From Paracoccaceae bacterium (GTDB taxonomy: Bacteria; Pseudomonadota; Alphaproteobacteria; Rhodobacterales; Rhodobacteraceae): DNA of 35,899 nt. Numbering within the stretch: the stretch's first letter is position 1; each line of letters starts with the position of its first letter. The notes under the pieces were generated by a model. That model was not told the origin of the DNA, did no database searches, and worked only from the letters and a program-made list of their open reading frames with translations. Positions 3,127 to 35,899 of the stretch are shown piece after piece. The stretch is taken from contig JAASTF010000001.1 in the NCBI GenBank assembly GCA_021767525.1, forward strand, positions 1 through 35,899. The letters run 5' to 3'. A program made the position numbers and the translations under genes.

Positions 3127-4371
3127 ATGTTCGCAGCCGAAACCCTTGCCGCCATCCGCGACCGCTTTGCCCATGTCGACACCTGCCCGATCACTGGCCC
3201 GCGGGTGTTTTTTGAAAATGCCGGCGGCGCGCTGACGCTGAAATCGGTGGTCGAAACCACGGCCACTTTCGCCGCGATCCCCGACAACCAGGGCCGCGCC
3301 AACCCGGCCAGCACGCATCTGATGCAGATCATCGCCAAGGCCCGCGACGACATGAAGCTGCTGCTGAACGCACCGGGCGGCCAGGTCATCGTCGGCGAAA
3401 GCGGGACCGAAATGCTCTATCGGATGATCCGCAGCGCCGCGATGGGCACGGGCCCCGGCCCGGTTATCGGCAGCACGCTGGAACACCCCGCCTCGCGCAG
3501 CGCGGCGCGGTTATGGGCGGAACGATCCGGGCGCAACTACATCGCCGTGGCCCATGACGACGCCACCGGCACGGTAACGCCCGATCACTATCGCCCGCAT
3601 CTGCGCCCCGATCTGGCCATCGCCACGATCATCCACACCAGCCCCGTCACCGGCATGGGCGTCGACGTGGCCACGATCGCCGCCGAAATTCGTGCTGTCG
3701 CACCCAAGTGCCTTATCATCGTCGATGGCATCCAGCACGCGGCCCACGGCTTGATCGACCTGACGGCGGCGGGCGTCGACGGTTATGCGATCTCGCCCTA
3801 CAAGATGTTTTCGTGCCACGGCTATGGCGTGGCATGGCTGTCGGATCGCCTCGCCGCCCTGCCCCACGAGGCGCTGGTCGGTGGCCCAGCCGAAAACTGG
3901 GAGCTGGGCACCCGCGACACCGGCGCCTATGCCACGCTGTCGGATGTGGTGGCCTATCTCGATTGGCTGGGTGGTTCGATTTCCACCGAAAGCGACCCGC
4001 GCGCGCGGATCGAGGCGGCGGGCGCCGCCATCCACGCCCATGAACATGCGCTGTGCGACGCGATGCTGCACGGCACCGGTAACCACGCGGGCCTGACCGC
4101 CCTGCCCGGCGTGCAGATCATCGGCGGGGCGGAAAACCCGGCCCGCGAAGGGCTGGTCAGTTTCTGGCACGACGGGCTCGCGTCGGCCGATATCGTCGCC
4201 GGGCTCGAGGCGCGCGGCCTGCGCGTGCATATCCGCAAGGCCGACCACTATTCGGGCAACATCCTTGACCCGCTGGGCCGGCCCGACTGCGTGCGTGTGT
4301 CGCTGGCGCATTACAACAGCCTGGACGAGGTGGCGCAGTTTCTGGACGCCATGCAGGACATCGCCGGCTGA
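3127..4371 (+). CDS. Class V PLP-dependent aminotransferase / cysteine desulfurase-like protein
   Basis: FFENAGG, LEHPA, VDGIQHAAH, SPYKMF (PLP Lys), ELGT and VRVSLAHYNSLDEV motifs; AAAGG upstream of ATG 3127 (ORF-track start 2938 is too long). Confidence 0.88.
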   Translation: MFAAETLAAIRDRFAHVDTCPITGPRVFFENAGGALTLKSVVETTATFAAIPDNQGRANPASTHLMQIIAKARDDMKLLLNAPGGQVIVGESGTEMLYRMIRSAAMGTGPGPVIGSTLEHPASRSAARLWAERSGRNYIAVAHDDATGTVTPDHYRPHLRPDLAIATIIHTSPVTGMGVDVATIAAEIRAVAPKCLIIVDGIQHAAHGLIDLTAAGVDGYAISPYKMFSCHGYGVAWLSDRLAALPHEALVGGPAENWELGTRDTGAYATLSDVVAYLDWLGGSISTESDPRARIEAAGAAIHAHEHALCDAMLHGTGNHAGLTALPGVQIIGGAENPAREGLVSFWHDGLASADIVAGLEARGLRVHIRKADHYSGNILDPLGRPDCVRVSLAHYNSLDEVAQFLDAMQDIAG

Positions 4372-8293: not shown

Positions 8294-8312
8294 GTTAAGG
8301 CAAGGTTTTTTC

Positions 8313-8972
8313 ATGACGGCCATGACTGACCAGAACCCGCCGCGCCAGCGCGCGCCCTCGGCCCGGGCCAAAGCCCGGCACGCCGCGATCCTTGATGCGG
8401 CCGAACGGGTATTCGCCGCGCGCGGCTTTGACGGGGCGACGATCCGGGACATCGCGACAGCGGCCGACGCGCCGGTTGGGCTGGTGCATCACCACGGGGG
8501 CGGCAAGGCCGCGCTGTTCGCGAAAGTGGTGGCACGGCGGGCCGATGCGCTGTCGGCGCTGCGCCTTGCCGCGCTCGACGCGGCGGCGCGGCCGCTGACC
8601 TTGCGGGCGATCCTGACCGCCTTTATCGCGCCCTATCTTAAGCAGGCCGAAACAGGCGGGCCGCAATGGCTGGCCTATGCGCGGCTGGTGGCGATGGTGT
8701 CGGCCGATGAAAGCTGGTCGGATATCTCGGCGCGGCATTTCGATCCGACGGCCGCGCGCTTTATCGATGCCATAGCCGCGCTTTATCCCGCCGCACCCAG
8801 GGCCACGATCGCGCAGGGGTTCGTGTATGCCGTGTCGATGATGCTGGCCCATGTGACCGCGGGCTGGCGCGTGGGCGCCTTGGGACGGAGCGGCGCGCAT
8901 CCCGGGCCCGAAGGGCTGGTGGCCTTTGCCGAGGCCGGCCTGCGCGCCCTTCTGGACAGGCCGGCCGACTAG
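8313..8972 (+). CDS. TetR/AcrR family transcriptional regulator
   Basis: AILDAAERVFAARGFDGATIRDIATAADAPVGLVHHHGGGKAALF N-terminal HTH; start at ATG 8313 or 8322. Confidence 0.9.
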   Translation: MTAMTDQNPPRQRAPSARAKARHAAILDAAERVFAARGFDGATIRDIATAADAPVGLVHHHGGGKAALFAKVVARRADALSALRLAALDAAARPLTLRAILTAFIAPYLKQAETGGPQWLAYARLVAMVSADESWSDISARHFDPTAARFIDAIAALYPAAPRATIAQGFVYAVSMMLAHVTAGWRVGALGRSGAHPGPEGLVAFAEAGLRALLDRPAD

Positions 8973-20730: not shown

Positions 20731-20833
20731 CAATCGCGCCGTAAAAGCCCGGCTATCAGGTGGACGGCGACAAGCCTGCCCTTGTATTCTGCCCCTTGTC
20801 ACTTGCCCCGCCCAAGCCACGGATCGAAAGCCC

Positions 20834-21739
20834 ATGCTTCGCGAAAACATCAACGACCTGATCGCCCTTGCCGCGGTTGCCGAAGAGCGCAGCTTTACCC
20901 GCGCCGCCGCGCGCCTGAACGTGTCGCAATCGGCGCTCAGCCACACGATCAAGGGGTTGGAACAGCGCCTCGGGATGCGGCTGTTGACGCGCACCACCCG
21001 CTCGGTCGCGCCGACGATAGAAGGCGAAGACCTGCTGGCCACCCTGACCCCCTGTTTCGAGATGATTGAATCCCGCCTGCGCGCGCTGAATGACGCCCGC
21101 GACCAGCCCACCGGCACCGTGCGGATCGCCGCCACCGAATACGCGATCGAAACGCTGCTTTGGCCCAAGCTGTCTCCGGTGCTGAAGCAGCACCCGGCGA
21201 TCAACATCGAATTCGTGATGGATTACGGCTATACCGATCTGGCCGAGGCGCAATGCGATGCCGGCGTGCGCTATGGCGAACAGGTCAGCGAGGGCATGAT
21301 CTCGATGCGGATCGGCCCGGACGAGCGGATGATCTGTGTCGCCGCCCCGGCCTATTTCGATGCGGCCGGCAAACCCGCCACGCCGCAGGACCTGTCGGAT
21401 CACCGCTGCGTCAACCTGCGCCTGTCGACCCACGGCGCGCTTTACGCGTGGGAGTTCGAGGATGCCGATGGCAGCGAAATCCGCGTCAAGGTGCAGGGCC
21501 AGGCCTGTTTCAACACGATCAACCCGGTGTTGCAGGCGGCGCGTGACGGCCACGGCATCGCGATGGTGCCCGAACGGCTGGCACAGCCGCACCTGGACAG
21601 CGGCGCGCTGCACGTTTGCCTGGACAGCTACTGCCCGCTTTTTCCGGGCTTTCACCTCTATTACCCCAGCCGTCTGCGCCCCTCGTCTGCGTTCGGGGTG
21701 GTTCTGGATGCGCTGCGGGATAATAAGCAGCGGTCATGA
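20834..21739 (+). CDS. LysR family transcriptional regulator (CrgA/PgrR-like)
   Basis: SFTRAAARLNVSQSALSHTIKGLEQRLGMRLLTRTTRSV HTH; DAGVRYGE, YAWEF, GFHLYYPSR. Confidence 0.95.
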   Translation: MLRENINDLIALAAVAEERSFTRAAARLNVSQSALSHTIKGLEQRLGMRLLTRTTRSVAPTIEGEDLLATLTPCFEMIESRLRALNDARDQPTGTVRIAATEYAIETLLWPKLSPVLKQHPAINIEFVMDYGYTDLAEAQCDAGVRYGEQVSEGMISMRIGPDERMICVAAPAYFDAAGKPATPQDLSDHRCVNLRLSTHGALYAWEFEDADGSEIRVKVQGQACFNTINPVLQAARDGHGIAMVPERLAQPHLDSGALHVCLDSYCPLFPGFHLYYPSRLRPSSAFGVVLDALRDNKQRS

Positions 21740-21753
21740 ATGCGGCTCATGAC
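21733..21753. promoter_or_regulatory. Putative LysR box GTCATGA-N7-TCATGAC upstream of the CMD operon
   Basis: GTCATGAATGCGGCTCATGAC with perfect 7-bp arms, overlapping the lysR stop codon. Confidence 0.7.
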
Positions 21754-21837
21754 TGGCGTGACAGCCGCCGCCATTAAGCCCGCCACGCGCGGCCCCACAT
21801 CATCGGAAAGCCCGTCATCCAACCAAAGGAGCATCCG

Positions 21838-22599
21838 ATGAAACGCCGTCTTACCACCGCCGCCCTGGCCCTGATCGCCTCTGGCGCCACCGCCCAGACG
21901 CTGGGCGACACCCTGCCCGACGAGGTGGGCCGCGTTGCACCGGCGCTGCACGCCTACGCGCAGGACGACCTGCTTGGCACCGTTTGGGCCGACCCGGCCC
22001 TGGGCACGCGCGACCGGGCGCTTGTGACGTTCGCGGCGCTGGTCACGCGGCAGGACAGCGCCGATCTGCCCGCCATAATCGCGGTTGCGCTGGATGCCGG
22101 GGTCACCCCGGCCGAGCTGTCGGAGACGGTCACGCATTTGGCCTTTTACACCGGCTGGGGCAATGCCCTGTCCGCCGCGCGGGCGATGGCGCCGGTATTC
22201 GCGGCGCGCGGCATCACCGCAGACAGCCTGCCGCCAGCTGACCCGACGCTCTTGCCGCTGGACCAAGAGGCCGAAGCCGCACGCGAAGACCTGGTGCGCG
22301 GTTTGTATGGCGATGTCAGCATGGGTGTGGTCGACACCACCCGCGACCTGCTGTTCCGCGATCTGTGGCTGCGCCCCGATTTGGCGCCGCGCGACCGCAG
22401 CCTTGTGACCGTTGCGGCGCTGATCGCGGCAGGGCAGTCGGAACAGATGACATTTCACCTGAACCGCGCGATGGATAACGGGCTGACCCGCGCCGAAGCG
22501 GGCGCGATGCTGTCGCATCTGGCCTTTTATGCCGGCTGGCCACGCGTCTTTTCCGCCCTGCCCGTCGCGAAAGAGGTCTTCGAGGCGCGCGCCGACTGA
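21838..22599 (+). CDS. Carboxymuconolactone decarboxylase (CMD/AhpD-like) family protein, tandem domains, with signal peptide
   Basis: Two repeats L..RDR.LVT.AAL...HLAFY.GW; AAGGAG RBS. Confidence 0.9.
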   Translation: MKRRLTTAALALIASGATAQTLGDTLPDEVGRVAPALHAYAQDDLLGTVWADPALGTRDRALVTFAALVTRQDSADLPAIIAVALDAGVTPAELSETVTHLAFYTGWGNALSAARAMAPVFAARGITADSLPPADPTLLPLDQEAEAAREDLVRGLYGDVSMGVVDTTRDLLFRDLWLRPDLAPRDRSLVTVAALIAAGQSEQMTFHLNRAMDNGLTRAEAGAMLSHLAFYAGWPRVFSALPVAKEVFEARAD

Positions 22600-22629
22600 C
22601 ACCCTGCCGCAAAGCAAAGGAGGACCGGC

Positions 22630-23268
22630 ATGAAGATCGGCATTCTGGGATCGGGCCTGATGGGCGCAACGCTGGGGCGTCTTTGGGCGGCCTGCGGCCA
22701 TGACGTGACCTTTGCCTATGCCCGCAGCGAAGAAAAGCTTGCGCGGCTTGCCCGCCAATGCGGCGCGGCGCATGGCAGTATCGCACATGCGGTCGAAGGG
22801 GCCGATGCCCTGTTACTGGCGGTGCATTGGTCGCGGGTGCCTGACGTGTTGGAACAGGCCGGTTCGCTTGACGGTCAGGTGGTTCTGAATTGCTGCGTGC
22901 CTTTGAACGATCAGAACACGCAGCTTGTGGTCGGCACCACCAGTTCGGGCGCCGAGGAATTGGCAAAACGGCGCCCCGGTGCGCGCTGGGTCGCCTGTTT
23001 CAACACCACCCCGTCGGAAAGCTTCGATCCCGTTTTCGCGCGCAAGGGAGGCGCAAATCCCCCGCAGGTTCTGACCTATGGCGATGACGCAGCGGCCAAG
23101 GACATCGCAGGCGGGCTGATCCGCGATATCGGTTTCGCACCGCTGGAAGCGGGCGGGTTGCAAAACGCCCGTTTCATCGAACCTTTCGCACTGGCCACGG
23201 TGGAGTTGGCCTATGTCCAGCCGGGCGGCCCGGCGCTGGTCTATCATTTTGAAAAACTGGGCGGCTGA
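22630..23268 (+). CDS. NADP oxidoreductase (F420-dependent NADP reductase-like family)
   Basis: [50 protein letters not shown] motifs; AGGAGG RBS. Confidence 0.88.
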
Positions 23269-25116: not shown

Positions 25117-25145
25117 TTGACAGGTATCGCGGCAATCGCTGGAAT
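25117..25145 (+). promoter_or_regulatory. Candidate sigma70 promoter for the phosphoesterase operon (TTGACA-N17-TGGAAT)
   Basis: Perfect -35 hexamer, weak -10; GGGGGA RBS before ATG 25161. Confidence 0.4.
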
Positions 25146-25160
25146 GACGCAGGGGGAATT

Positions 25161-26552
25161 ATGGTCAACTGGGTATGCGTTTCTGATCTTCATGCCGGTG
25201 GGCTGACCAGCCTCTTGCACGAGATCGACCGCCTGTCGGACGGCGCGCCGCGCGTCACGGCGGCCTTTTCCGCCGCGCTTGCCGCGTTTCTGGACGACCT
25301 GCGCCCGGACGACGCGCCCAAACCGCAACTTATTCTGCTGGGCGACGTTCTTGATCTGCAATTCGCAAAACGCAGCGCGGCGACGCGCGACGCGGTTGCG
25401 TTTCTCGCCCCCTTGGCCGAAGCGGGCTGTTTCGCACCCACGGTGATCGCGACGGCGGGCAACCACGACCACAGCCTGTGGACCGAGGCGCGGCTGGCCA
25501 TGGAGGCCCGCGCCTTCGAACAGGGGCGCGATGACAGCCCGGTGCACACCCCCGCCTTTGGGCCCGCCGAAGCGGCGCAAAGCGCGTTGTTGCAGGCGGT
25601 GTTGCGCAAAGCGGGCTTCGGATCGCTGGACCTGCGCTATCCCAATATCGGTTTTGCCGACGGCCGCCGTGCGGTGGTTCTGCATCACGGCCATTACATC
25701 GAAGACGCCTATCGCGTCGTCAGCACGGTGAAAGCCGCGCTTGGCGCGGATCGCGCCACGCCGATGACGGTCGGTACCCTGGCGGCGGAAAACGCCAGCT
25801 GGATCGATTTCGCCTGGTCGCCCTTGAACGACGCCGATGGGCTGGAGCGGCTGTACCAGAATTTCCTGACCACCGCCGGCTTTCGCCGCATCACGCGCGG
25901 CTGGACCGACCGGGCCGCCGCCGCGCTGTCGCGGGCGCTGCCCCTGCCCGGCAATCCGATGATGCAGCAGGCCCTGCGCGCCATCACCAAAGCGGGGGTC
26001 GAGGCCACGCTGGGCCGCGCGCGCGACACCGAAAGGATGGCCGAGGTGCTGTCGCTGACCGACAGCGGCCGTGCCGGGCTGCTTTGGTATCTGGAACAGC
26101 CGGTGCTGGAACAGATGAGGGCCGAAATCCCGGACTTCGAGGGCGAGGTCACTTTCGTGATGGGGCACACGCATCGCCCGTTCGCGATGCGCGTCAAGCC
26201 GCGCGGCTATGGCGACACGGTGCGCGTTTACAATACCGGCGGCTGGACGTTGAACGGCCCGCGGCTCGACAATGCCGAGGGCGCGGCCCTTGTGCTGATC
26301 GACGATCGGCTGAACACCGCCGCGTTGCGGCTGTTTTCGACCCCGCGCAATGGCAAGGTGCCCGACGCCCGGATCGAGATGCTGTCGAACGGCCATGACG
26401 ATGAAACCGCGTTCCAGCACAAGCTGGACACCAGCCTGAAACGCACCCGGCCCTCGTGGGACCGCCTGACCCAAGAGGTGACGAACGCCTATGTCGCGCG
26501 CCAAGAACTGCTGATCTCGATGACCGCCGCCTTTGACGAGGCGGCGGAATGA
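25161..26552 (+). CDS. Calcineurin-like metallophosphoesterase
   Basis: All five motifs present: SDLH, LGDVLD, GNHD, HHGH, MGHTH, plus NTGGW. Confidence 0.88.
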   Translation: MVNWVCVSDLHAGGLTSLLHEIDRLSDGAPRVTAAFSAALAAFLDDLRPDDAPKPQLILLGDVLDLQFAKRSAATRDAVAFLAPLAEAGCFAPTVIATAGNHDHSLWTEARLAMEARAFEQGRDDSPVHTPAFGPAEAAQSALLQAVLRKAGFGSLDLRYPNIGFADGRRAVVLHHGHYIEDAYRVVSTVKAALGADRATPMTVGTLAAENASWIDFAWSPLNDADGLERLYQNFLTTAGFRRITRGWTDRAAAALSRALPLPGNPMMQQALRAITKAGVEATLGRARDTERMAEVLSLTDSGRAGLLWYLEQPVLEQMRAEIPDFEGEVTFVMGHTHRPFAMRVKPRGYGDTVRVYNTGGWTLNGPRLDNAEGAALVLIDDRLNTAALRLFSTPRNGKVPDARIEMLSNGHDDETAFQHKLDTSLKRTRPSWDRLTQEVTNAYVARQELLISMTAAFDEAAE

Positions 26553-29500
26553 CGCCCGGGTTCAAACCGATCTCGACCGATTTCGCCACGCTTGCAAAGT
26601 GCGATTTCGATGTGATCGTCGTCGGCTCGGGTTACGGCGGGTCGGTTGCGGCGTCGCGCCTGGCGCGCTGCGGCAAATCTGTGGCCGTTCTGGAACGCGG
26701 GCGCGAGATCGTGCCGGGCGAATACCCGCGCGATGCGGGCGCGGTGTCGGGCGCGTTTCAAACCACTCTGTCCGGCGACACGATCGGCGAACGGGATGCG
26801 CTGTTCGACCTGCGGGTGTTTGACGACATGACCGTTCTGGTCGGGTGCGGCCTGGGCGGCACGTCGCTGATCAATGCCAATGTCGCCATTGCGCCCGAGC
26901 CGCGCGTGTTCGACGCCTGGCCGCAGCCGCCCGAAGGCGACTGGCCCACCGCGCTGGCCCCGCACCTGGCGCAGGCACGGGCCATGCTGGGCTCGACCTC
27001 TTATCCGGCCCACAAAACGCCGCCGAAACTGCACGCGATGCAGCGGATCGCCGCGGGGCTGGGCCGCAATTTGCAGCGCCCCGATATCAACGTGACCTTT
27101 CGTGACGGGCCGAACGCCGCCGGTATCTGGCAACCCGCCTGCGTCGATTGCGGCGACTGCGTGACCGGCTGCAATTATGGCGCCAAGAACACGACGCTGA
27201 TGAACTATCTGCCCGACGCCCACGCCTTTGGCGCAACGCTGGTGACAGGGGCCGAGGTTCTGACGGTCGCCCGCATCGCGCCCAAGACGCCCGACGCCGC
27301 CCCGCGCTGGCACGTCACGGCCCGACCGGTCACCGACGCCCCCGCCGCGCCTGCGCGGGGGCTGACGGGCGATGTTGTGATCCTTGCCGCCGGAACGCTG
27401 GGCAGCACCGAAATCCTGTTGCGCAGCGCCGCCGACCTGCCGCTAAGCCCCCGGCTGGGGCACGGCTTTTCCGGCAATGGCGACAGCTGGTCGCTTGGTT
27501 TCAATGCCAACATGCCGGACGAAACCGGCCGGCGCGCCGCCGTTTACGCGATCGGCGCAGGCCCGCATGGCATCCCCCCCGGCCCGGCCCCGACGGGGCC
27601 CGATTTGCACCGCCCCGGGCCGTGCATCACCGGCATGATCCATGTGACCGACCCGGCACTGGACAAAACCGTGATGATCGAAGAGGGCGTGATCCCCGGC
27701 GCCTTCGCCGCCGCCTGCGCCGTGGGCATTCCCGGGCTTGCCACGCTGGAAAGCGATCCGTTTCGGTATGGCGACCTGGCGCAGCGCGCCGGTGACATGG
27801 CCGATCTGGCCGCAAACATCACGGGCGACCCGGCAAAGCTGGCGGACAGCGTGTATGACGGCCCCGTGTCGCGCACCCTGCCTTTTCTGACCTTCAGCCA
27901 CGATGCGGCCGCGGGCGGGATGACATTGCGCCACGGCCGGGTATCGGTCAGCTGGGAGGGTGCGGGCCAGGATGCGGCCCTGGCCCATTCCGATGCGGCG
28001 CTGAAAAAGGCCTGCGACACGATCCAGGCAGAATATCTGCGCTTTCCCACCGCCTTGGATGCTTTCGGCAACCGAACGATGGTGGTCCATCCTCTGGGCG
28101 GCTGCGCGATCGGCGCCGATGCGACGACGGGCGTCGTCGACACCGAATGCCGGGTGTTCGACGGCCGGGGCGACGTGCATCAGGGGCTTTACGTTATGGA
28201 CGGCGCGATTATCCCCACGGCACTGGGCGCAAACCCGCATCTGACGATCACCGCGCTGGCCGAACGCGCGGTCACGCGGCTGGCCGAGGCCCGGCATTGG
28301 CATATCGACTGGGCCCCGCCCCCAGACCGCCAAAGCACGCCCACGGACAGCACACCCGATTACGCGCAGGTGCTAAAGCAGGTGATCGACGGGCTTCAGG
28401 CCATCGCCACCGCCATCGACGGCAAGGCGTTCGAACTGGCGCGATTGCTGCTGATGGGGGCCTGGCGTCAGGTCATCGAGTTTGCCCGGCAACGCGACGA
28501 CAGGCTGACGGGCGGGCGGCACAACTTTCCCACTGTCGAGCGTTTCATCCGGTATTTCGGCACGCCCGAGGCATTGGTGTCGACGACCGGCCCCATCATC
28601 GGGCAATTCCTCGACATCCTCGTGCCGCTGCAAATGACGGTCGACAAGGGCGATCTGCCCGCCCTGCTGGTCCTGCTTGAACGAAAGCTCGGGGATTTTT
28701 CGCCCGCCGCCCGCTTCCCCGAGGAAATGGCCGGGCATATCTCGCCCATTGGGGTCGACGATCCCGAAAGCGGCTTTGACGCGCACGACATTCTGGGCGA
28801 AGGGGCCTGGCCCTGCCATCTGAAAGCCACGCTGACGGCCGACCGCATCGCGGCCCTGGGCGCCGAGCCCGTGGGCAGCGCCGAGATGAAACACGCCAGC
28901 TTCACCTGCGCGGGGCTGGGCGGCACGTTTCACCTGACAGGGACCTTCAAGTTTCTCGCGCTCGACCCGCGCGCGGTGGACCGCTGGCGCGTCACCTATG
29001 ACGGGCGACTGACGCATGACGATGGCACCTCTTTCATGTTTCGCGGGCGCAAGACGCTGCAACATCGCAAGGGCGGGCATTGGTGGCGCGATCTGTGCGA
29101 TCTGGATGTCGATATCCTGGACGGCGACACGCCGGTTGCGCGCGGGCGGATGCAGGTCAGCCTGGAAAACGCGATCCGGCAGGCGCACGGCTTTGACGTG
29201 CGCTATGACGATTTGACGGATGCGCCGCAGTCGGTCTGGGACAGGATCAAGGAAACCGTCGGCGGTGGCGCGGACTGGCCGATCTGCAAAAGGCCCGATG
29301 TGTCCAAGCTGCCGGCGCTGTTTCGCGAAACCGGCTTTCGCGTGCTTTGCGCCAAGGCGGCGCTGGCGATACTTGATGCCGACGCAGCAAAAACACGGGC
29401 GCCCGCCCCTTCGGAACAGGTGGCGCAGGCGTTCAAGGCGCGCTTTCTGGCGCGGGCGGCAGGGCTGGTGTTTCGCAGCTATGGCGGGATCTACGCCTAT

Positions 29501-30730
29501 GGCGTCAACTTTCCCTATCGCGATCTGCAAGACACGCCCCCGGCCCGGCCCGACCTGCCGACGCCCGAGATCCTGTACCCCGAACCCGAGCCGGGCGTGG
29601 TTCTGAAACTGACCCGCTATCGCAAACCCCGTCCGGATGGCGCGCCGTTGAAAGGCCCGGTGATCCTGGCCAACGGTTTCGGCGTCAAGGCGTCGGCCTT
29701 TGCGGTGCCGACGACGTTCACCAACATCGTGGAAATGCTGGTCGAAGACGGGTTCGACGTGTGGTTGTTCGACTATCGCGGCAGCGGTGATGCTGCCGGC
29801 AGCACGACACGCTTTACCATCGATGACGTAGCGCAAAAGGACTGGCCCGCGGCGATCGACATGGTTCTGGCCCGCACCGGTGCCGCAAAGGTGCAGGTTC
29901 TGGCGCATTGCGTCGGATCGCTGTCGCTGTTCATGGCCGTGCTGGCGGGCGAAAGGCGCATCCGTTCGATCATCGCCTCGCAAGTGGGCGCGCACGGGAT
30001 CGTCAACTGGTTCAAGAATGCCCAGTTCGACGCCCAGATCGGCGGTGCTGTCGCCAACGGCCTGCCGCCCGCACTGTGGCCTCTGGTGGACATGCTGGGC
30101 CTCGATGACGAGCTGGCGACGCTGGCCAGGACCGGCCTGCCGGTCGTCGATGTGCGCGCGCCCACCGAAACCTATTCCGCGCCGCTGAACGCCGCGATGG
30201 ACGCGCTGCTGTGGTCGGTGCCGCATTTCTCGGATGTGCCCTGCAAGAACCCGACCTGCCATCGCATCAACTTTGTCTATGGCCCCACCTACCGGCACGA
30301 GAACCTCAACCAGGCCACACATAATTACATCCACCGGATGTTCGGCCCTGTCTCGTCGACGCCGTTTCTGCATCTTGCGCTGATGTTCGACGCCGGCAAA
30401 CTGCTCAGCGCGACGCTGGCTCCCGATGGCACGGTCCGGCCCGACGGCAAGACCCGGTATTACGACGGCCACGCCAACCTGGATATGCCGGTGCATTTCT
30501 TTTCCGGGGCGCAAAACCCCGAAATCCTGCCCGAAGCGACGCTGCGCAGCTATCACTGGCTGCGCCGCGTGAACGAAAGGCCCGACCGCTATACCAGGCA
30601 TGTTTACCAGGGCTATGGCCACATGGACTGCTTTGTCGGACGCGATGCATGGAAAGACATCTTTCCCGACCTTCTTGCCCTTTTGAACGACCCCGAAAAG
30701 GCCGCGAAACGCTATGCCGACGACACCTGA
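26549..30730 (+). CDS. Fusion protein: cholesterol-oxidase-like GMC oxidoreductase + uncharacterised middle domain + alpha/beta hydrolase (1393 aa)
   Basis: VGSGYGG, LERG, GLGGTSLINANV, CVDCGDCVTGC, AAGTLGSTEIL, HPLGGC, GLYVMDG..IPTALGANP; C-terminal GFDVWLFDYRGS, AHCVG, GYGHMD; ATGA coupling with the upstream gene. Confidence 0.9.
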   Translation: MTPGFKPISTDFATLAKCDFDVIVVGSGYGGSVAASRLARCGKSVAVLERGREIVPGEYPRDAGAVSGAFQTTLSGDTIGERDALFDLRVFDDMTVLVGCGLGGTSLINANVAIAPEPRVFDAWPQPPEGDWPTALAPHLAQARAMLGSTSYPAHKTPPKLHAMQRIAAGLGRNLQRPDINVTFRDGPNAAGIWQPACVDCGDCVTGCNYGAKNTTLMNYLPDAHAFGATLVTGAEVLTVARIAPKTPDAAPRWHVTARPVTDAPAAPARGLTGDVVILAAGTLGSTEILLRSAADLPLSPRLGHGFSGNGDSWSLGFNANMPDETGRRAAVYAIGAGPHGIPPGPAPTGPDLHRPGPCITGMIHVTDPALDKTVMIEEGVIPGAFAAACAVGIPGLATLESDPFRYGDLAQRAGDMADLAANITGDPAKLADSVYDGPVSRTLPFLTFSHDAAAGGMTLRHGRVSVSWEGAGQDAALAHSDAALKKACDTIQAEYLRFPTALDAFGNRTMVVHPLGGCAIGADATTGVVDTECRVFDGRGDVHQGLYVMDGAIIPTALGANPHLTITALAERAVTRLAEARHWHIDWAPPPDRQSTPTDSTPDYAQVLKQVIDGLQAIATAIDGKAFELARLLLMGAWRQVIEFARQRDDRLTGGRHNFPTVERFIRYFGTPEALVSTTGPIIGQFLDILVPLQMTVDKGDLPALLVLLERKLGDFSPAARFPEEMAGHISPIGVDDPESGFDAHDILGEGAWPCHLKATLTADRIAALGAEPVGSAEMKHASFTCAGLGGTFHLTGTFKFLALDPRAVDRWRVTYDGRLTHDDGTSFMFRGRKTLQHRKGGHWWRDLCDLDVDILDGDTPVARGRMQVSLENAIRQAHGFDVRYDDLTDAPQSVWDRIKETVGGGADWPICKRPDVSKLPALFRETGFRVLCAKAALAILDADAAKTRAPAPSEQVAQAFKARFLARAAGLVFRSYGGIYAYGVNFPYRDLQDTPPARPDLPTPEILYPEPEPGVVLKLTRYRKPRPDGAPLKGPVILANGFGVKASAFAVPTTFTNIVEMLVEDGFDVWLFDYRGSGDAAGSTTRFTIDDVAQKDWPAAIDMVLARTGAAKVQVLAHCVGSLSLFMAVLAGERRIRSIIASQVGAHGIVNWFKNAQFDAQIGGAVANGLPPALWPLVDMLGLDDELATLARTGLPVVDVRAPTETYSAPLNAAMDALLWSVPHFSDVPCKNPTCHRINFVYGPTYRHENLNQATHNYIHRMFGPVSSTPFLHLALMFDAGKLLSATLAPDGTVRPDGKTRYYDGHANLDMPVHFFSGAQNPEILPEATLRSYHWLRRVNERPDRYTRHVYQGYGHMDCFVGRDAWKDIFPDLLALLNDPEKAAKRYADDT

Positions 30731-33700
30731 GGGCGACACGCGCTGGACGGCGATCCTGTCGGCGGACATGGCCGGCTTTACCGAGATTTCGCAGGCCATC
30801 GGCCCCGAGCGGGTCTATGCCTTGCTGACCATCGTGCTGGATCACGCCCGCGCCGCCATCGCCGCCCATGACGGGCATGTGGTGGATACCGCGGGCGATG
30901 GCATCCTGGCCGCCTTCGGTGCACCGCGGGCGCTGGAAAACGCGGCGCTTTGCGCCTGTCGCGCGGCGCTTGATTTTCAGGACCGGCTGCAACGCGAACG
31001 GCAGCGGCTGGAATCCGAATTCGACGCCCTGATCCTGTTCCGGGTGGGCATCGCCGGCGGCAACACGATGGTCGCGCGGCTGGACGATGGCGGCATCAAG
31101 GTGGTCGGTCCCGCGGTCAACACCGTGGCGCGCCTGCAGGATCTGGCCATGCCGGGCGAAACGCTGATTTCCGACGCGGTGCGCCAACAGGCCGAGGGCC
31201 ATGTCAGAAGCGCCGATATCGGGCATGTCACCTTGAAAGGTTTTCCCGATCCGGTGCGGGTTCACAAGCTGGAAGGCGCCGAGGTGGCGGTCAGCAGCTT
31301 CGACGCCGCGCGCCGGCGCGGCCTGGTCGGGCTGGTGGGTCGCGGGCCCGAGTTGCGGCAGATCCTGTCCGCCCTGTCCGACCCCTCCGATCACGGCGTC
31401 ATGTTCCTGCGGGGCCCTGCGGGCATAGGCAAATCGCGCCTCGCTCACGAGGCCAGCATCGCAAGCGGCCTACGGGTGTTGACCGGCCAATGTCAGCCTT
31501 CGTCGAACTCGCGCGCCTACCAGCCCTTTTCCGAGATCTTCCGCCAGGCCGCCGATGTGGCAGCAGACGGCGACGTGCCAGACCCCGCGGCGCCCATCCT
31601 GATGCGCCACCCCGATTTGAGGGCCGAGTAGGCGGATATCGGCGCCGGTGACGACATACGTGACCAAACCGGCCGCGCGTTGCGGCTGCGCCTGCTATAC
31701 CTGAAGCTGCTGGAACGGATCGCCAGTGACGCCCCGACGCTGTTCGTGATCGAAGATGCCCATTGGATCGATCCGGCCTCTGGCGCCCTGCTGGCGCGGC
31801 TGGTGGAAAGCGGCCTGCCTTTGCTGCTGACGGCACGCCCCGGCCATGACCCGGACTGGATCGCGCGAGACAACGTGACCGTGCTGGACCTGGCGCCGCT
31901 GGATGACCCTGACATCGCGCGCATCGCGCAGGCGACGATCGCCATGCCGATCTCGGACAGGGTGGCACGTTTCGTGACCACGAAGGCCGAAGGCAACCCG
32001 CTGATCGCGCAGGAAATCGCCCGCGCACTGTCACAGGACGGGCATTTGGCGATAATCGACACCGGTGCCGACATGCAGCACGATCCCGGCCCGCTGGTGA
32101 CCGGCCAGCTAGAGCAGATGGTGCTGTCACGTATCGACCGGCTGGGTGCCACACAGCAGGAAACGATGCGTTTTGCCTCGACCATCGGTCGCGTTTTCGC
32201 CGCCTCGACGCTGGAGGCCGCGTTGCAGCGCCCCGCCGACCTGGCTGGTATCGCCCAGACCCCCGGCCTGATCGAACAGGTGGCGCCCGGGCGATGGCGC
32301 TTTGTACATGCGCTGATCCGCGACGCAGTTTACGGCAGCCTGCTGTCTGCCCACCGCCGCGAGGTGCACCACAAGATCGCCCGGGCGCTGGACGCCGCGC
32401 AAGGCAACGACAGCGATCTGGCGGCGGCTGTCGCGCATCATTATCTGCACTCGGACGCGCCCGAACTGGCCGCGCCGCATCTTGTGCGCGCCGCCGGGCA
32501 CAGCCTTGGCGCCTATGCGCTGGCCGAAACCGATGCCTTGTCGACCCGGGCCCATGACCTTGAGGTGCGCAATCCCGGTCTGCTGGACGATCGCAGCTAT
32601 GCCGACATGGCGGTGTATTGGCTACGCGCGATGGACAACATGGGCGATTTCCGGCGCGGTATGGCCCTGTCGCGGCAATTGCTGCCCCGGCTCGAGGCGA
32701 TGGGCTATTCCACGTCGCTGGGCATTTCCCGGATGCTGACGACAATCGCCCTGACCCACGCCTGGGACTATGACGCCGCCCACCGGATGGCGCAAACGAC
32801 GCTGGACCAGGCCGAAAGGCAGGGCGACGACTGGGGCGCGGCTTGGGCCAAGGTCGCCCTGATGCGGATCTTTGACGAAAGCAAGCGCGCCGATATCGCC
32901 ACGATCGAGCGGCTCTCTGCCGAAATCGCGCCCGTCGCCCTGCAAACCGACGACCGTCACATGGCGATGACGGCGCACTACCTGTTGTCGTCCGCTTACC
33001 GCTCGACCGGGCAGCGGCGCAAGGCGCTGGCGCAGGTCAAGACCATCGAAACCTTCTCGGTCACCCAAAACGACCGGCGGGCCATGGGCTATGCGAAATG
33101 GGCCCGCGCGCTGGTTCACGCGGTCGAAGGCGACCCGCAACGCGCTCATGACGCGATACGGGACGCGCGCGATTACGTCATCCCCGGCTCGGGCGATGAA
33201 AGGGTCAGCCTGGGCATCGTCTATTTCTGCGCCTCCTTCCTGGGCGCGCCCGGCGACGCCCCCGCCGGAATCGCCGCGCTGGAACACGAGGCCGCGCGCA
33301 TGGCCGACCGCAACATCGAGGGCTCGATGGCCTATACAAGCGCCTTCGCCGATCTGCGCGCAGGCGCCCTGGCCCGTGGCTGGCGCAAGCTGAACGCGTT
33401 GGAGCGGTATATCGGCCCAAAAGGCAACGTGAACCTGATGCACCAGGTTCTTGCCACGCGCTGCGAAATCCTGTTGGCGCTGGCCGGGCTGATCGATCCC
33501 GCGTCCGAGCGGCCGCAAGGCGCGCCCGGCCGTCCAGCCACCCGCCCCGGCCTTGCAGATATGCTGCTTTACGCGCAGCTTCGGCCGCGCGCCCTGCGCC
33601 TGGCCGAACGAACGATCGCCGCCAGCCACGCCCTGCCCAACGGGTTGGAAAGCGCGCATAGCACACGGCACACCATTGCCCTGGGCCTGATCCACCTGGC

Positions 33701-33815
33701 CCGCGGGCATCGGCAACAGGGCCGTGCGCTGCTGCAAGACGGGTTGGCCCTGGCCGAAAGCGAGGGGGTCGACATTCTGGCCCGCCGCGCCCGAACCGCG
33801 TTGGAAGCGGGCTGA
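30714..33815 (+). pseudogene. Class III nucleotide cyclase-STAND (AAA) ATPase-helical repeat protein, interrupted by one in-frame TAG at 31629-31631
   Basis: ORFs 30714..31631 and 31680..33815 are in the same frame with only one stop between them. Cyclase motifs SADMAGFT, AGDG, VNTVARL; Walker A GPAGIGKS before the stop; Walker B FVIEDAHWID, TARP, EGNPL, FVHALIRDAVY after it. Confidence 0.85.
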
Positions 33816-33866
33816 ACGCCCGCGCCGTGCGTCATTTTCCTCGGCACGGGGGGCGGTCTGTGCTAG

Positions 33867-33885
33867 TGATTTGCCAATCAAATCA
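33867..33885. promoter_or_regulatory. Inverted repeat TGATTTG-N5-CAAATCA upstream of the Crp-family gene
   Basis: Perfect 7-bp AT-rich arms immediately before the start codon. Confidence 0.5.
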
Positions 33886-33890
33886 GATCG

Positions 33891-34610
33891 GTGGCGTATA
33901 TGAACGGCGAGGCGGCTTCTGATGGCGATCTGCGCCGCATTTTGATCCGCGCCTTGGGCGATGATGCGCCCGAGGCCTTGTTCGGCACCGCCCGGCCCGT
34001 GCGCTTTGCCCGCGGGGCGACGATCTTTTCGATCGGCGATCCGGGCACCGGCGTGATCCTGATCGAAAGCGGACGGGTCGAGGTGTCGACCATGTCGGTC
34101 GCGGGGCGCAAATCGGTGCTGGCCCATATGGGCCCCGGCGCGCTTTTGGGCGATATCGCCGCCTTGGACGGGGGCGGTCGGTCAGCCGATGCGGTGGCCG
34201 CGACCGACGTGACCGGGCGGTTCCTGCCGCGCGAGACTTTGCTGAAGTTCATCGGCGCGCACCCGGCGCTGGCCCGCGCGATCATCGTCGAGCTGTGCCG
34301 AAAGGCGCGCAATGCCTCGGATATGTTCGTCACGCAAACCCTGCCCGAGGCCGAGGCGCGACTGGCGCGTGCCCTGTTATGCCTGTTCGATGGCTGGGGC
34401 ACCGCCGACAGCTACGGCGCGATCACCCTGACCGAACGGTTTTCGCAACAGGACCTGGGCGCCTTTTGCAGCCTCGCGCGCGAAAATGTCAGCCGTCAGA
34501 TCACCGCCTGGACCGCGCAGGGTATCCTGGCCAATCGCGACCGCCGGCTGGTTCTGCTGGACCGTGCGCGGCTGCAGGCTTTGGCCGAGGGCTGGACATC
34601 GCAGACCTAA
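33891..34610 (+). CDS. Crp/Fnr family transcriptional regulator (cNMP-binding domain + HTH)
   Basis: IFSIGDPG, IESGRVEV, GPGALLGDIAALDGGGRSADAVA, FSQQDLG....ARENVSR; no Fnr Cys cluster. Start GTG 33891 or ATG 33900. Confidence 0.92.
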   Translation: MAYMNGEAASDGDLRRILIRALGDDAPEALFGTARPVRFARGATIFSIGDPGTGVILIESGRVEVSTMSVAGRKSVLAHMGPGALLGDIAALDGGGRSADAVAATDVTGRFLPRETLLKFIGAHPALARAIIVELCRKARNASDMFVTQTLPEAEARLARALLCLFDGWGTADSYGAITLTERFSQQDLGAFCSLARENVSRQITAWTAQGILANRDRRLVLLDRARLQALAEGWTSQT

Positions 34611-35899
34611 AAGGCGCACGGGCCTGCGTCGCTGCGCACCATGCGCAGCACGACCGAGCGTGCGAACAGCTCTTCCAGCGGGCTTTCGATGTCAGGGCTC
34701 AGCCCGGTTATACCCAGCAACGTGTCGCGGCGACGCTCGAAATCGGCCGTGTCGGTGAACCTGCCAAAGCGCGGCAGGAACGACTCAAGCGTACCGGCGG
34801 CGGCGCTGGCATCGATCAGTTGGGTCATCGGCGCATGGGTGCCATCTGCCAGCGTGACCAGGACGCGCGGCAGGGCTGCGGCATCCATCAATTCGCCCAG
34901 ACGCCGCATCGCGCCCAGCCGGCGCCCTTCGGCAAGGTAGTAATTCAACCGGTCTGGCGCGGCGGTGCCCGAGGGGCCATCCCAGGACGGGCTTGCCAGG
35001 CCGATCATGTCGATCTGAACAGTGGCGTTGCCCACCAGGCAGCTTTCCAGCGTCTCGGCGATCCGCGCGAAATAGCTGACACCGTCGGGTGTGACGACGG
35101 GATCGGTCAGGTTCGCCGTATCCGCTCCCCAGTCGAACGCGCCTTGCGGCGTTTCACCGCTGCGCACCGGCGTGGTGAAAAAGGGCAGGACAAGCGCGTT
35201 CTGCAGCCCTTGCACCGCCGCCTCGTCGCCCCCTGGCAGGGTGATCGATGTCTGAAAGATATGCGCATTGACACCGGCCGGCGCATCGCCGTCCGGCGGC
35301 ACCCGGATGGCGGGGGTCACGATCAGCGCGGCGGGTGCCGCGCCAGAAGGGACCGGCCACTGGCCCAGCGCCAGGCCCAGCGCCCCTTGCTGGGCGATCA
35401 GCGCTGACAACTTGTCATCGAGCAGCGTGACAAGCGCGGCCCCGCTGCGATCACCGGTAAGCTGCGCGGCAAGCGTCGCACCCAGCCGGGTGCCATCGGC
35501 CAGGGCAAGGCGCAATTCGCGCAATTCATGGATCAGACCGCCGGCGCCATCCGCCCCGTCGAAAAACGCCAGCATATGATCCGGCAAATCCAACCGGCTG
35601 GTGGCAGGACCGGCCCCGGCAAAGACGATTTCCAAAGCCTGCGCCATCGAGATATCGCCGCCCAAATGGCCGCGCACCGTGTTCAGCGCCGCCAGTATCG
35701 CGGCCACGTCGATCCGCGCCGGGTCGGGGTTGGACAGGGCGATCGCGATGCTTTGGCGCGCCTTAAGCATGATCGGGTCAGCCAGTCTTGGTGCGGGGGT
35801 CGCCCCGGCCATCACCGCCTGTGTCAGGATTTCAAGGCTTGTATGGCCCAGGTCCACCGTGACTGCCGCGGCCTGGCCCTGCCCGGCCTCCTTCTGCGC
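34607..35899 (-). CDS. Hypothetical protein, C-terminal part (5' end outside window), with probable divergent OmpA/MotB-like C-terminal domain
   Basis: Frame is open from the window edge (AQKEAGQGQAAAVTVDLGH...). AFDWG...FARIAETL...VQIDMIGLAS...NYYLAEGR...ARSVVL resembles the OmpA_C pattern. Confidence 0.7.
   Translation of the reverse strand, partial: AQKEAGQGQAAAVTVDLGHTSLEILTQAVMAGATPAPRLADPIMLKARQSIAIALSNPDPARIDVAAILAALNTVRGHLGGDISMAQALEIVFAGAGPATSRLDLPDHMLAFFDGADGAGGLIHELRELRLALADGTRLGATLAAQLTGDRSGAALVTLLDDKLSALIAQQGALGLALGQWPVPSGAAPAALIVTPAIRVPPDGDAPAGVNAHIFQTSITLPGGDEAAVQGLQNALVLPFFTTPVRSGETPQGAFDWGADTANLTDPVVTPDGVSYFARIAETLESCLVGNATVQIDMIGLASPSWDGPSGTAAPDRLNYYLAEGRRLGAMRRLGELMDAAALPRVLVTLADGTHAPMTQLIDASAAAGTLESFLPRFGRFTDTADFERRRDTLLGITGLSPDIESPLEELFARSVVLRMVRSDAGPCAF

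Follow-up and report, generated by a model that had tools for sequence, protein, structure and literature searches.

What does a gene cluster do that places a metallophosphoesterase, an oxidase-hydrolase fusion and a nucleotide cyclase joined to a STAND NTPase beside a Crp-family regulator? The question is raised by contig JAASTF010000001.1 of assembly GCA_021767525.1, of which positions 1 to 35,899 of the forward strand form the window, i.e. the whole stretch of DNA analysed (35,899 nt) and the reference for all coordinates. The features are:

25117..25122, + strand: TTGACA, a -35-like hexamer 5′ of the phosphoesterase gene (comparison with the closest loci)
25161..26552, + strand: Metallophos phosphoesterase ORF, 463 aa (ORF call, Pfam domain)
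26549..30730, + strand: GMC + alpha/beta hydrolase fusion ORF, 1393 aa (ORF call, Pfam domains)
30714..33815, + strand: cyclase-STAND gene, 1033 codons, interrupted (ORF call, motifs)
31629..31631, + strand: in-frame TAG, codon 306 of the cyclase-STAND gene (reading frame, second assembly)
33867..33885, no strand: perfect 7-bp inverted repeat TGATTTG-N5-CAAATCA, just 5′ of crp (sequence inspection)
33891..34610, + strand: crp gene (ORF call)
34607..35899, - strand: convergent ORF, the last 430 aa of a membrane protein of ~945 aa (ORF call, contig C190 overlap)

The ATGA overlap between the phosphoesterase and fusion genes (26549-26552) and the 17-nt overlap between the fusion and cyclase-STAND genes (30714-30730) were present as originally predicted, and the crp gene indeed starts after a gap of 75 bp. 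The convergent gene, previously described as OmpA-like, does overlap the crp stop codon, by 4 nt, but its likeness to OmpA proved weak (see below). The hexamer TTGAC(A/T) stands at the equal position in 10/10 of the closest loci, the present one counted. Simple promoter scans returned nothing at either promoter, no full sigma-70 site was found 5′ of the phosphoesterase gene, and no CRP box with up to 2 mismatches precedes this gene in 9/9 close loci. The inverted repeat was not seen 5′ of the other crp genes checked. According to the neighbourhood survey, the genes flanking the module are metabolic and transport genes, with no defence islands.

The same survey upheld the claim of a conserved co-located module, as the genes co-occur above chance. 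Among 400 genomes of the family, 11 carry the phosphoesterase; a GMC-hydrolase orthologue is present in 10 of them and a cyclase-STAND gene adjoins the phosphoesterase in 11/11. The complete trio (phosphoesterase, GMC-Cys-hydrolase fusion and cyclase-STAND) stands together in 10/400 family genomes, and one genome, G333, has the phosphoesterase and cyclase-STAND without the GMC. Some cyclase-STAND occurs in 97/400, and the best 10 family matches to ours, a set that counts the query genome itself and G000, all lie next to a phosphoesterase gene. The phosphoesterase and cyclase-STAND trees, the latter made with FastTree only, recover identical 9-row and 19-row clades although the gene order is shuffled; 4 wHTH-STANDs, the distant STAND fragment of L046 and the second STAND of L081 are omitted from them. 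The genes with their overlaps are confirmed, as is their co-occurrence, and the phosphoesterase, GMC-Cys-hydrolase and cyclase-STAND are a co-inherited three-gene unit, joined by a Crp.

This linkage is not obligatory. Of 80 phosphoesterase loci, 22 have both GMC and cyclase, 32 GMC only, one cyclase only (the contig ends there) and 25 neither; the phosphoesterase accompanies the GMC-hydrolase in 54/80 and the cyclase in 23/80, the cyclase being missing from 57/80. Genes for cNMP-binding/Crp proteins are found in 14/80 loci, 13 of these 14 with a cyclase, which supports the proposed pairing of a writer (class III cyclase) with a reader (Crp). The third-gene slot may hold cyclase-STAND, wHTH-STAND-TPR (4 loci), cyclase-TPR (2), GGDEF, a LuxR response regulator, a kinase or nothing. 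Split versions of the module add patatin, ADC-like or FAD-oxidase genes, and TIR-, SAM- and zinc-ribbon variants occur among the relatives. The module was not found in 4/4 genomes of the same genus; the phage collection search gave no match and the plasmid search 1 record.

The fusion begins with a cholesterol-oxidase-clade GMC flavoprotein (aa ~17-585) that has the GMC fold, the HPxGG active-site His and a Cys-rich, Fe-S-type motif, CxxCxxCxxGC, found in 50/54 loci. Its best PDB matches are the Streptomyces class I cholesterol oxidase ChoA (1B4V/4U2L, E 6e-23), and it scores 178.6 bits with the class I cholesterol oxidase model NF058674 (NCBIfam), far below the cut-off of 850 bits. A helical insert and an unnamed beta domain follow (aa ~605-885); both fold searches for the beta domain were filled by the hydrolase and the Atlas gave unnamed clusters only. 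The C-terminal part is a lipase/PhaC-fold alpha/beta hydrolase with a Cys nucleophile (HCVG, C1121; H1358), which VIA-align superposed on dog gastric lipase (Z 32.2, rmsd 3.4, 335 aligned) and PhaC (Z 26.7).

The phosphoesterase is calcineurin-like and has every metal motif (SDLH, GDVLD, GNHD, HHGH, GHTH). All five class III PDE motifs defined in PMC4222275 (D..GD..GNH[E/D]..H..GHxH) are present; they are common to the whole superfamily. In the predicted model (pLDDT 88.5 overall) a large helical insert of residues ~180-322 (helices 182-322) sits where LpxH has its lipid-binding cap, and among the Foldseek matches listed the first 14 were all LpxH, with CpdA-type Rv0805 at rank 46. In VIA-align, LpxH (Z 12.2, rmsd 4.3, 224 aligned) came narrowly behind the PolD DP1 exonuclease (Z 13.5, rmsd 4.6, 227 aligned), and Mre11/SbcD was the first, weak match of the sequence profile; given these matches, the lipid assignment is not exclusive. 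GNHD is invariant in 43/43 phosphoesterases, and the Asn-Arg of LpxH motif III (N79-R80) is not found. The CpdA/SpdA family models in NCBIfam gave no match at E 0.01; as a positive control, the SpdA-like gene of another locus, L106, matched SpdA at 8e-50 and CpdA at 2e-23; the G240 neighbour matched SpdA with 170 bits.

Fused relatives also tie this enzyme to the GMC-hydrolase. The coral protein P0167, one predicted gene model, is a GMC-hydrolase-Metallophos fusion whose phosphoesterase part aligns over 84 columns only (hhalign E 8e-9), and 3 bacterial proteins among 108 matches are GMC-hydrolase-PhoD fusions; no fused form of the phosphoesterase family itself appeared among proteins of 897-2560 aa, which is weak evidence. 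Complex prediction for hydrolase and phosphoesterase gave 0.51 against 0.00 for the best control, with runs sharing at least 65% of contacts and partner pLDDT of at least 79. We regard this as weak support: the mark was reached by 116/157 solved and 2/215 mismatched pairs, and scores at or below 0.60 belonged to 18/157 solved pairs and to both mismatches that reached it. Because the phosphoesterase follows the GMC-hydrolase more than the cyclase, has LpxH as its closest model and is linked to GMC-hydrolases by fusions, it is probably not the CpdA-type cNMP eraser proposed before and is likely the third enzyme of the GMC/hydrolase module. The three activities likely process a lipid, since their fold neighbours are LpxH, gastric lipase/PhaC and cholesterol oxidase, and the earlier claim of a coupling to a lipid-type enzyme gains support.

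The catalytic residues of the class III cyclase are intact (D18, D62, N136, R140 and K175; PF00211, 47 bits). Its base-selecting pair is D58 + K129, and Asp + Lys recurs in 8/8 of the closest cyclases; the first residue is acidic in 14/18 clade rows (Glu in 5) and Lys in 1. CyaB has K/T and Cya2 E/G at these columns, and the other cyclase of the same genome carries K/T. The pair is not that of adenylate cyclases (Lys + Asp/Thr), nor the textbook guanylate pair (Glu + Cys/Gly): its first residue is acidic, here Asp, but its second is Lys. A K-to-E change moves Ma1120 toward GTP (PMC4215837). Because Asp/Lys stands where adenylate cyclases have Lys and Asp/Thr, the product is probably a cyclic nucleotide other than cAMP, probably cGMP. 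The cyclase is followed by a STAND NTPase with conserved motifs (Walker A GPAGIGKS, Walker B LFVIEDAHW) and by helical repeats; AAA_16 scores above cut-off in the orthologues, TIGR03903 matches in part, and the proposed role of STAND as a ligand gate is supported as likely.

In the present genome the cyclase-STAND frame is interrupted. The original prediction only hinted at this by speaking of a repaired cyclase; we located the TAG inside the NTPase domain, between Walker A and Walker B. None of the 9 other family orthologues with the highest scores is interrupted by a stop. The same TAG, with no alternative letter, is found in a second assembly, a 9.35-kb contig of run X1, which may be the source sample of the present assembly; that contig differs at 9 other places and not there, which disfavours an assembly error. 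No CTA-anticodon tRNA for amber read-through was among the 40 tRNAs found in the assembly, which is 90% complete. The truncated product would be a cyclase domain lacking its sensor, so that in this genome the circuit is probably silent, or was lost only recently.

The Crp-family regulator is GlxR/Clr-like (Clr, at E 1.6e-22, is one of the solved structures nearest to it), with an RS phosphate motif (GGRSA) and a recognition helix RENVSR (R-E-x-x-x-R), both signatures of cNMP-activated Crp in PMC10187061. The other marks of such proteins, E72 and T127-S128, are altered: the C-helix Thr (T127 equivalent) is Ala in all 9 Crp of the subfamily compared, and the E72 equivalent is Asp in the present copy and Glu in 8/8 orthologues. 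Crp is probably the reader of the cyclic nucleotide: a perfect TGTGA-N6-TCACA box lies near 12/20 Crp-subfamily loci; it scores best of 320 control palindromes (12 against 7 for the next, mean 0.39), and 72 control loci held 2 perfect boxes, both in a single locus with another Crp. In 4 of the 8 phosphoesterase-linked Crp loci, the DNA covered contains no perfect box. Boxes at other loci point to Tad pilus/caspase genes, adhesins and P47 clusters.

The sole perfect box in the 3.3 Mb genome lies 138 nt 5′ of the convergent operon. The convergent ORF continues past the window into contig C190, a join that rests on a unique 149-nt overlap and on full-length relatives. The six-gene operon there has the box at its head and encodes a VPLPA-CTERM protein, three helical ORFs, a patatin and, last, the OmpA-like ORF; a VPLPA-CTERM gene follows the box in 3 further loci (matches below cut-off). 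Pfam OmpA (PF00691) had no match in this ORF nor in 27/27 relatives scanned, hhalign of its end with two OmpA domains was weak though in register (E 0.14 and 0.024), the best OmpA cluster in the Atlas (0.84) is a lead only, and the PDB sequence search with the family returned coiled-coil noise only. Its proposed place in the core of the module did not stand: the gene is part of a separate patatin-linked cassette, absent from 80/80 phosphoesterase loci, and metagenome contig L120 has the six convergent genes without Crp or box. Because the genome's only perfect box heads its operon, the gene is likely output, and the operon as a whole the likely Crp target in this genome.

Taken together, we favour, at about even chances, a circuit for local sensing. 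Its sensor arm would consist of the three enzyme activities, acting on a lipid to give a product that the STAND helical repeats would detect. The activated cyclase would then form a cyclic nucleotide other than cAMP, probably cGMP; loaded with it, Crp would bind TGTGA-N6-TCACA and turn on expression of the convergent surface/membrane operon. We infer that the enzymes act upstream of the cyclase because they share with it a promoter without a CRP box; the linkage would be explained just as well if STAND responded to the substrate of the enzymes, or to the enzymes as such. A tentative extension is an NLR-like receptor guanylate cyclase with its own ligand-making trio, in which the ligand for STAND would be made from a host or membrane lipid and an insulated relay of cGMP and Crp would turn on plug-in operons for colonisation or attack (Tad pili, adhesins, patatin, P47 cassettes).

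A doubtful alternative is a catabolic or remodelling lipid operon, alongside which the STAND-cyclase would respond to the substrate or to some unrelated cue, and whose enzymes would dampen the signal or be independent of it. The exchangeable third gene and the split versions fit such an operon, as do the roles in surface lipids described for ChoD-like GMCs (PMC11060060). The operon's regulator should then control it, yet the enzymes in the 9 close loci have no CRP box 5′ of them and the boxes point at other operons; moreover, a flavin oxidoreductase lies directly 5′ in the cyclase-STAND+Crp loci of G369 and G379 too.

It is unlikely that the locus is an anti-phage or conflict system. On this view the STAND cyclase, similar to Avs/Pycsar, would detect infection, and the cell would be killed by the enzymes or by patatin and membrane proteins that Crp induces. 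The module is rare and patchy, with the negative result in its genus, has an NLR-like architecture with TIR-, SAM- and zinc-ribbon variants, and its targets include patatin, hydrophobic-hairpin ORFs, caspases and P47 clusters. However, PADLOC 2.0 found no Avs match for the present cyclase-STAND or 4 intact orthologues, contrary to the Avs-like antiviral reading given before, and its PycC/PycTIR matches cover only shared domains, at fold level. The flanking genes and the empty phage search also speak against it, and the cyclase's neighbour is not a Pycsar TIR/transmembrane effector but a DNA-binding Crp (cNMP-binding + HTH_Crp_2), whose targets include Tad pili and adhesins.

Very unlikely is the self-contained writer/eraser/reader circuit first proposed, with the phosphoesterase degrading the cNMP: the five PDE motifs, the GMC-less pair in G333 and the agreeing trees would suit it, yet most phosphoesterase loci lack a cyclase, CpdA/SpdA models recognise the control gene and not this one, the cap is LpxH-like, GMC-hydrolase fusions exist, and even SpdA at the Sinorhizobium meliloti cyaD1 locus is reported as lacking 3′,5′-cAMP activity (PMC4222275).

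Cyclase-STAND-TPR proteins are common, as the family survey shows, and we know of no ligand for any of them. The present subfamily, with its defined enzyme set, Crp box and target operons, makes ligand, messenger and output testable in cultured strains, among which Litorisediminicola beolgyonensis CCUG 62953 (L030), Jannaschia sp. Os4 (L047) and Aliiroseovarius salicola KMU-50 (L039) carry the locus intact. The Asp/Lys pocket is a predicted new nucleotide-selecting pair that possibly widens bacterial cGMP signalling, and an unstudied three-enzyme lipid module is defined from bacteria to a coral. The open-access texts searched contained nothing on this module, the coral fusion or a Roseobacter cGMP-Crp.

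Among known systems, mycobacterial Rv0386-type and TOMM kinase/cyclase NTPase proteins have the order cyclase, NTPase (AAA_16/NB-ARC) and helical repeats, with Walker motifs. Domain order and Walker motifs are common to both; the present subfamily differs by the absence of a C-terminal HTH, by its Asp/Lys pocket and by co-inheritance with the enzyme pair. From cholesterol oxidase/ChoD, gastric/lysosomal acid lipase and PhaC, the fusion differs by being fused, by the Cys-rich motif and by the Cys nucleophile; the activity of mycobacterial ChoD on cholesterol is itself disputed. LpxH, as described in PMC6286764, has a calcineurin-like core whose motifs IV and V are separated by a helical cap, as does the phosphoesterase, in which His replaces the essential Arg80, the cap is about twice the size, identity is 11-19% and the context is not that of lipid A. 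Avs/AVAST and Pycsar resemble the locus in STAND-TPR architecture and in a class III cyclase adjoining a cNMP reader, but here no Avs model matches and the reader is an HTH transcription factor. A locus with cyclase, Crp and phosphoesterase has a precedent: the cyaD1-clr-smc02178-spdA locus of S. meliloti also combines a class III cyclase, a Crp reader, a metallophosphoesterase and a Crp-box target (PMC4222275, PMC10127613). As those accounts present it, the S. meliloti enzyme is a receptor adenylate cyclase and the box is TGTT-N8-AACA, whereas here the cyclase is STAND-gated with an Asp/Lys pocket, the phosphoesterase is not SpdA-like, a GMC-Cys-hydrolase is attached and the box is TGTGA-N6-TCACA. 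Another comparable system is gcyB-gcyC-cgrA of Rhodospirillum centenum (PMC10187061), where alphaproteobacterial cyclase genes are likewise linked to a Crp with a perfect TGTGA-N6-TCACA and the messenger is cGMP, as predicted here; relative to that system as described there, the present locus adds the lipid-enzyme trio, the loss of the C-helix Thr and swappable neighbouring target operons.

We re-examined the window and recovered the five ORFs, the two overlaps, the 75-bp gap and the overlap of convergent stops exactly as in the original prediction. The block and its Pfam matches are as follows:

25161..26552 (+), phosphoesterase: Metallophos
26549..30730 (+), GMC-Cys-hydrolase fusion: GMC and abhydrolase
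30714..33815 (+), cyclase-STAND: Guanylate_cyc and AAA_16
33891..34610 (+), Crp: cNMP_binding and HTH_Crp_2
34607..35899 (-), convergent OmpA-like ORF: no Pfam match

The window is the entire contig C187 of assembly G000, and its closest kin are marine Rhodobacterales-type alphaproteobacteria. The convergent ORF extends onto contig C190 via a unique 149-nt overlap, and relatives of 940-1006 aa align in register with both pieces. A perfect inverted repeat 5′ of crp (33867-33885) is a possible regulator site. The region 919-24863 is ordinary in content (Ppx, FtsJ, aminotransferase V, SDRs, FMO, peptide ABC transporter, RND efflux, aldo-keto reductase, BKACE), and several ORFs (3511-4311, 8295-8900, 20756-23247) had no Pfam or NCBIfam match in the frames tried.

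The nearest match of the GMC domain is class I cholesterol oxidase, with a score far below the cut-off of that class. Its CxxCxxCxxGC motif, found in 50/54 loci, suggests an iron-sulfur cofactor. The cholesterol-oxidase annotation says little: whether mycobacterial ChoD acts on cholesterol is disputed, and the M. smegmatis orthologue of ChoD influences glycopeptidolipid acetylation (PMC11060060). The C-terminal domain of the fusion resembles gastric lipase and PhaC in fold. Its nucleophile elbow is an invariant His-Cys, and the sequence suggests a Cys-His-Asn or Cys-His-Asp variant of the triad. An invariant Asn (N738 in alignment A2; window 28304-30727) would occupy the usual triad-acid position of lipases.

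The phosphoesterase model (pLDDT 88.5) carries a large helical insert at the site of the LpxH lipid-binding cap, and VIA-align gave Z values of 13.5 for PolD DP1, 12.2 for LpxH and 9.2 for Rv0805. Arg80 of LpxH (PMC6286764) is missing, so the enzyme is LpxH-like but no LpxH. A coral gene model (P0167, Oculina patagonica KAL9984021.1) fuses GMC, Cys-hydrolase and a metallophosphoesterase with the same motif style as that of the window. In three bacterial proteins, GMC and Cys-hydrolase are joined to PhoD instead. A predicted hydrolase-phosphoesterase complex scored 0.51, with the best control at 0.00. Without prior support, predictions in this range are wrong more often than right, and this one lends such a complex weak support. 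The three activities form a module that probably works on a lipid. The module is probably cytoplasmic, since no hydrophobic leader was found on the enzymes.

The cyclase keeps all catalytic residues. At the two positions that select the base, 8/8 closest cyclases carry Asp and Lys; in the same columns CyaB has Lys/Thr and Cya2 has Glu/Gly. Because GTP is favoured when the first residue is acidic (PMC4215837) and an Asp/Lys pair would complement guanine, the predicted product is likely cGMP. The second cyclase of this genome is of the Lys/Thr type, which would permit insulation of the signal. The Crp resembles GlxR and Clr. It retains both the RS and the R-E-x-x-x-R signature and no longer has the Thr that contacts cAMP (signatures and position per PMC10187061 and PMC10127613). 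Its subfamily, present in 15/400 family genomes, also adjoins cyclase-STANDs downstream of other flavin oxidoreductases (genomes G369, G379). The oxidoreductases preceding cyclase-STAND and Crp at loci L108 (4660-9595) and L116 (3556-9367) are of other kinds (FAD_binding_4/BBE; amine-oxidase-like plus ADC fusion), hinting at a general design in which an oxidase would make the ligand.

In the cyclase-STAND frame, codon 306 is a TAG that interrupts the gene after Walker A and before Walker B. A 9.35-kb contig from a second assembly (run X1) covers the TAG with no difference there and nine elsewhere, five of them inside the gene and every one silent. GC3 of the gene is 0.81, similar to its neighbours, and the other best family orthologues are uninterrupted (9/9). 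Together these point to a lesion that is probably real and recent, and the stop probably disables the circuit in this genome.

The sole perfect copy of the proposed Crp site, TGTGA-N6-TCACA, in the 3.3-Mb assembly (C190:7160-7175, locus L015) stands 138 nt 5′ of six co-oriented genes terminating at the crp stop:

C190 (L015) into the window, convergent to crp: VPLPA-CTERM protein, three helical ORFs, patatin, OmpA-like membrane ORF
L015 3181-6291 (-): the three helical ORFs (452, 254, 327 aa), which match no family and are found in L120 too

Two of the helical ORFs have hydrophobic segments, a possible resemblance to multi-component alpha-helical pore formers. Patatin recurs beside a 750-1270-aa membrane protein (L015 1-3154 (-) with window 34607-35899; L120; L123) whose family has a divergent OmpA-like end, 30 relatives and no Pfam name.

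A perfect box lies near 12/20 loci of the Crp subfamily, the highest score when 320 palindromes of this kind were compared; 72 control loci held two. The extended consensus of 14 boxes is TGTGA(C/T)GCGC(G/A)TCACA. The operons faced differ, comprising Tad pilus/caspase clusters, cadherin or RTX adhesins, an OmpA protein and VPLPA-CTERM-headed P47 clusters. Upstream of the phosphoesterase we found a conserved TTGAC hexamer and no perfect box. Because boxes face other operons, none precedes the phosphoesterase, and patatin and the OmpA-like ORF form a separate cassette elsewhere (L120, L123; 1/330 order genomes), we place the enzymes, on sequence grounds, on the input side of the circuit, with the convergent operon probably a plugged-in target. 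In three family genomes (L107 10274-15554, L109 4088-9466, L112 4097-9483), VPLPA-CTERM and Clostridium_P47-family clusters are headed by Crp and a CRP box. A cluster of Tad-pilus, caspase-DUF4384, FGE-sulfatase and OmpA genes repeatedly adjoins this Crp subfamily (L118/L013, L119, L106, L026, L027, L032).

The co-occurrence across genomes expected of a module was borne out for the enzymes and the cyclase-STAND. Among 400 family genomes, the phosphoesterase is present in 11, with an adjacent cyclase-STAND in 11/11 and a hydrolase orthologue in 10/11. Cyclase-STANDs of any sort occur in 97/400, and the ten top matches to an intact orthologue are precisely the phosphoesterase-adjacent ones. A search of 4 same-genus genomes found the fusion in none. 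In the best 80 of 368 GTDB phosphoesterase loci, surveyed with profiles built in part from the same 80 loci and with cyclases confirmed by Pfam, 22 carry both GMC and cyclase, 32 GMC without cyclase, 25 neither, and one, where the contig ends, cyclase without GMC. cNMP-binding/Crp genes occur in 14 of these loci, with GMC in 14/14 and cyclase in 13/14. The OmpA-like ORF, originally counted as part of the module, is found in 0/80, as is patatin. Gene order varies (cyclase divergent or downstream; crp convergent, downstream or upstream). A 9-row clade including the window and a 19-row alphaproteobacterial clade recur in both trees, that of the phosphoesterase and that of the cyclase-STAND. Beyond the 19-row clade the enzyme pair adjoins TIR-, SAM-, zinc-ribbon- or BTAD-cyclase-STANDs, wHTH-STAND-TPR, cyclase-TPR, GGDEF or LuxR regulators. 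GMC, phosphoesterase and hydrolase are separate genes at L088, L094, L095 and L102, neighboured by patatin, ADC-like or FAD-oxidase genes; at L034 (11410-15556) two frames hold GMC-hydrolase, through a real split or a frameshift error.

We propose a chain with about an even chance of being right as a whole: the enzyme trio would process a lipid, the helical repeats of the STAND would sense a product, the cyclase domain would synthesise a cNMP, probably cGMP, and Crp would activate the adjacent surface operon. A catabolic operon acting in parallel, with the sensor co-travelling, is less likely, though the strongest of the rivals. A defence system is improbable; the original prediction had named antiviral Avs proteins among the STAND ATPases, and no Avs match was found. 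Least probable is the proposed role of the phosphoesterase as cNMP eraser, since CpdA/SpdA models do not match it but do match a short phosphoesterase at a separate cyclase-STAND-Crp locus (G240), and Foldseek ranked LpxH first and CpdA-type Rv0805 46th.

Our search of the open-access literature found no paper on this module, and the block belongs to neither Avs nor Pycsar. It would work like the R. centenum gcy-cgrA system and the S. meliloti cyaD1-clr-spdA locus, yet is a member of neither; the phosphoesterase of the latter did not cleave 3′,5′-cAMP (both points on S. meliloti from PMC4222275). The local cyclase-Crp circuit itself is of a known kind, and it is the attached enzyme module that is uncharacterised.
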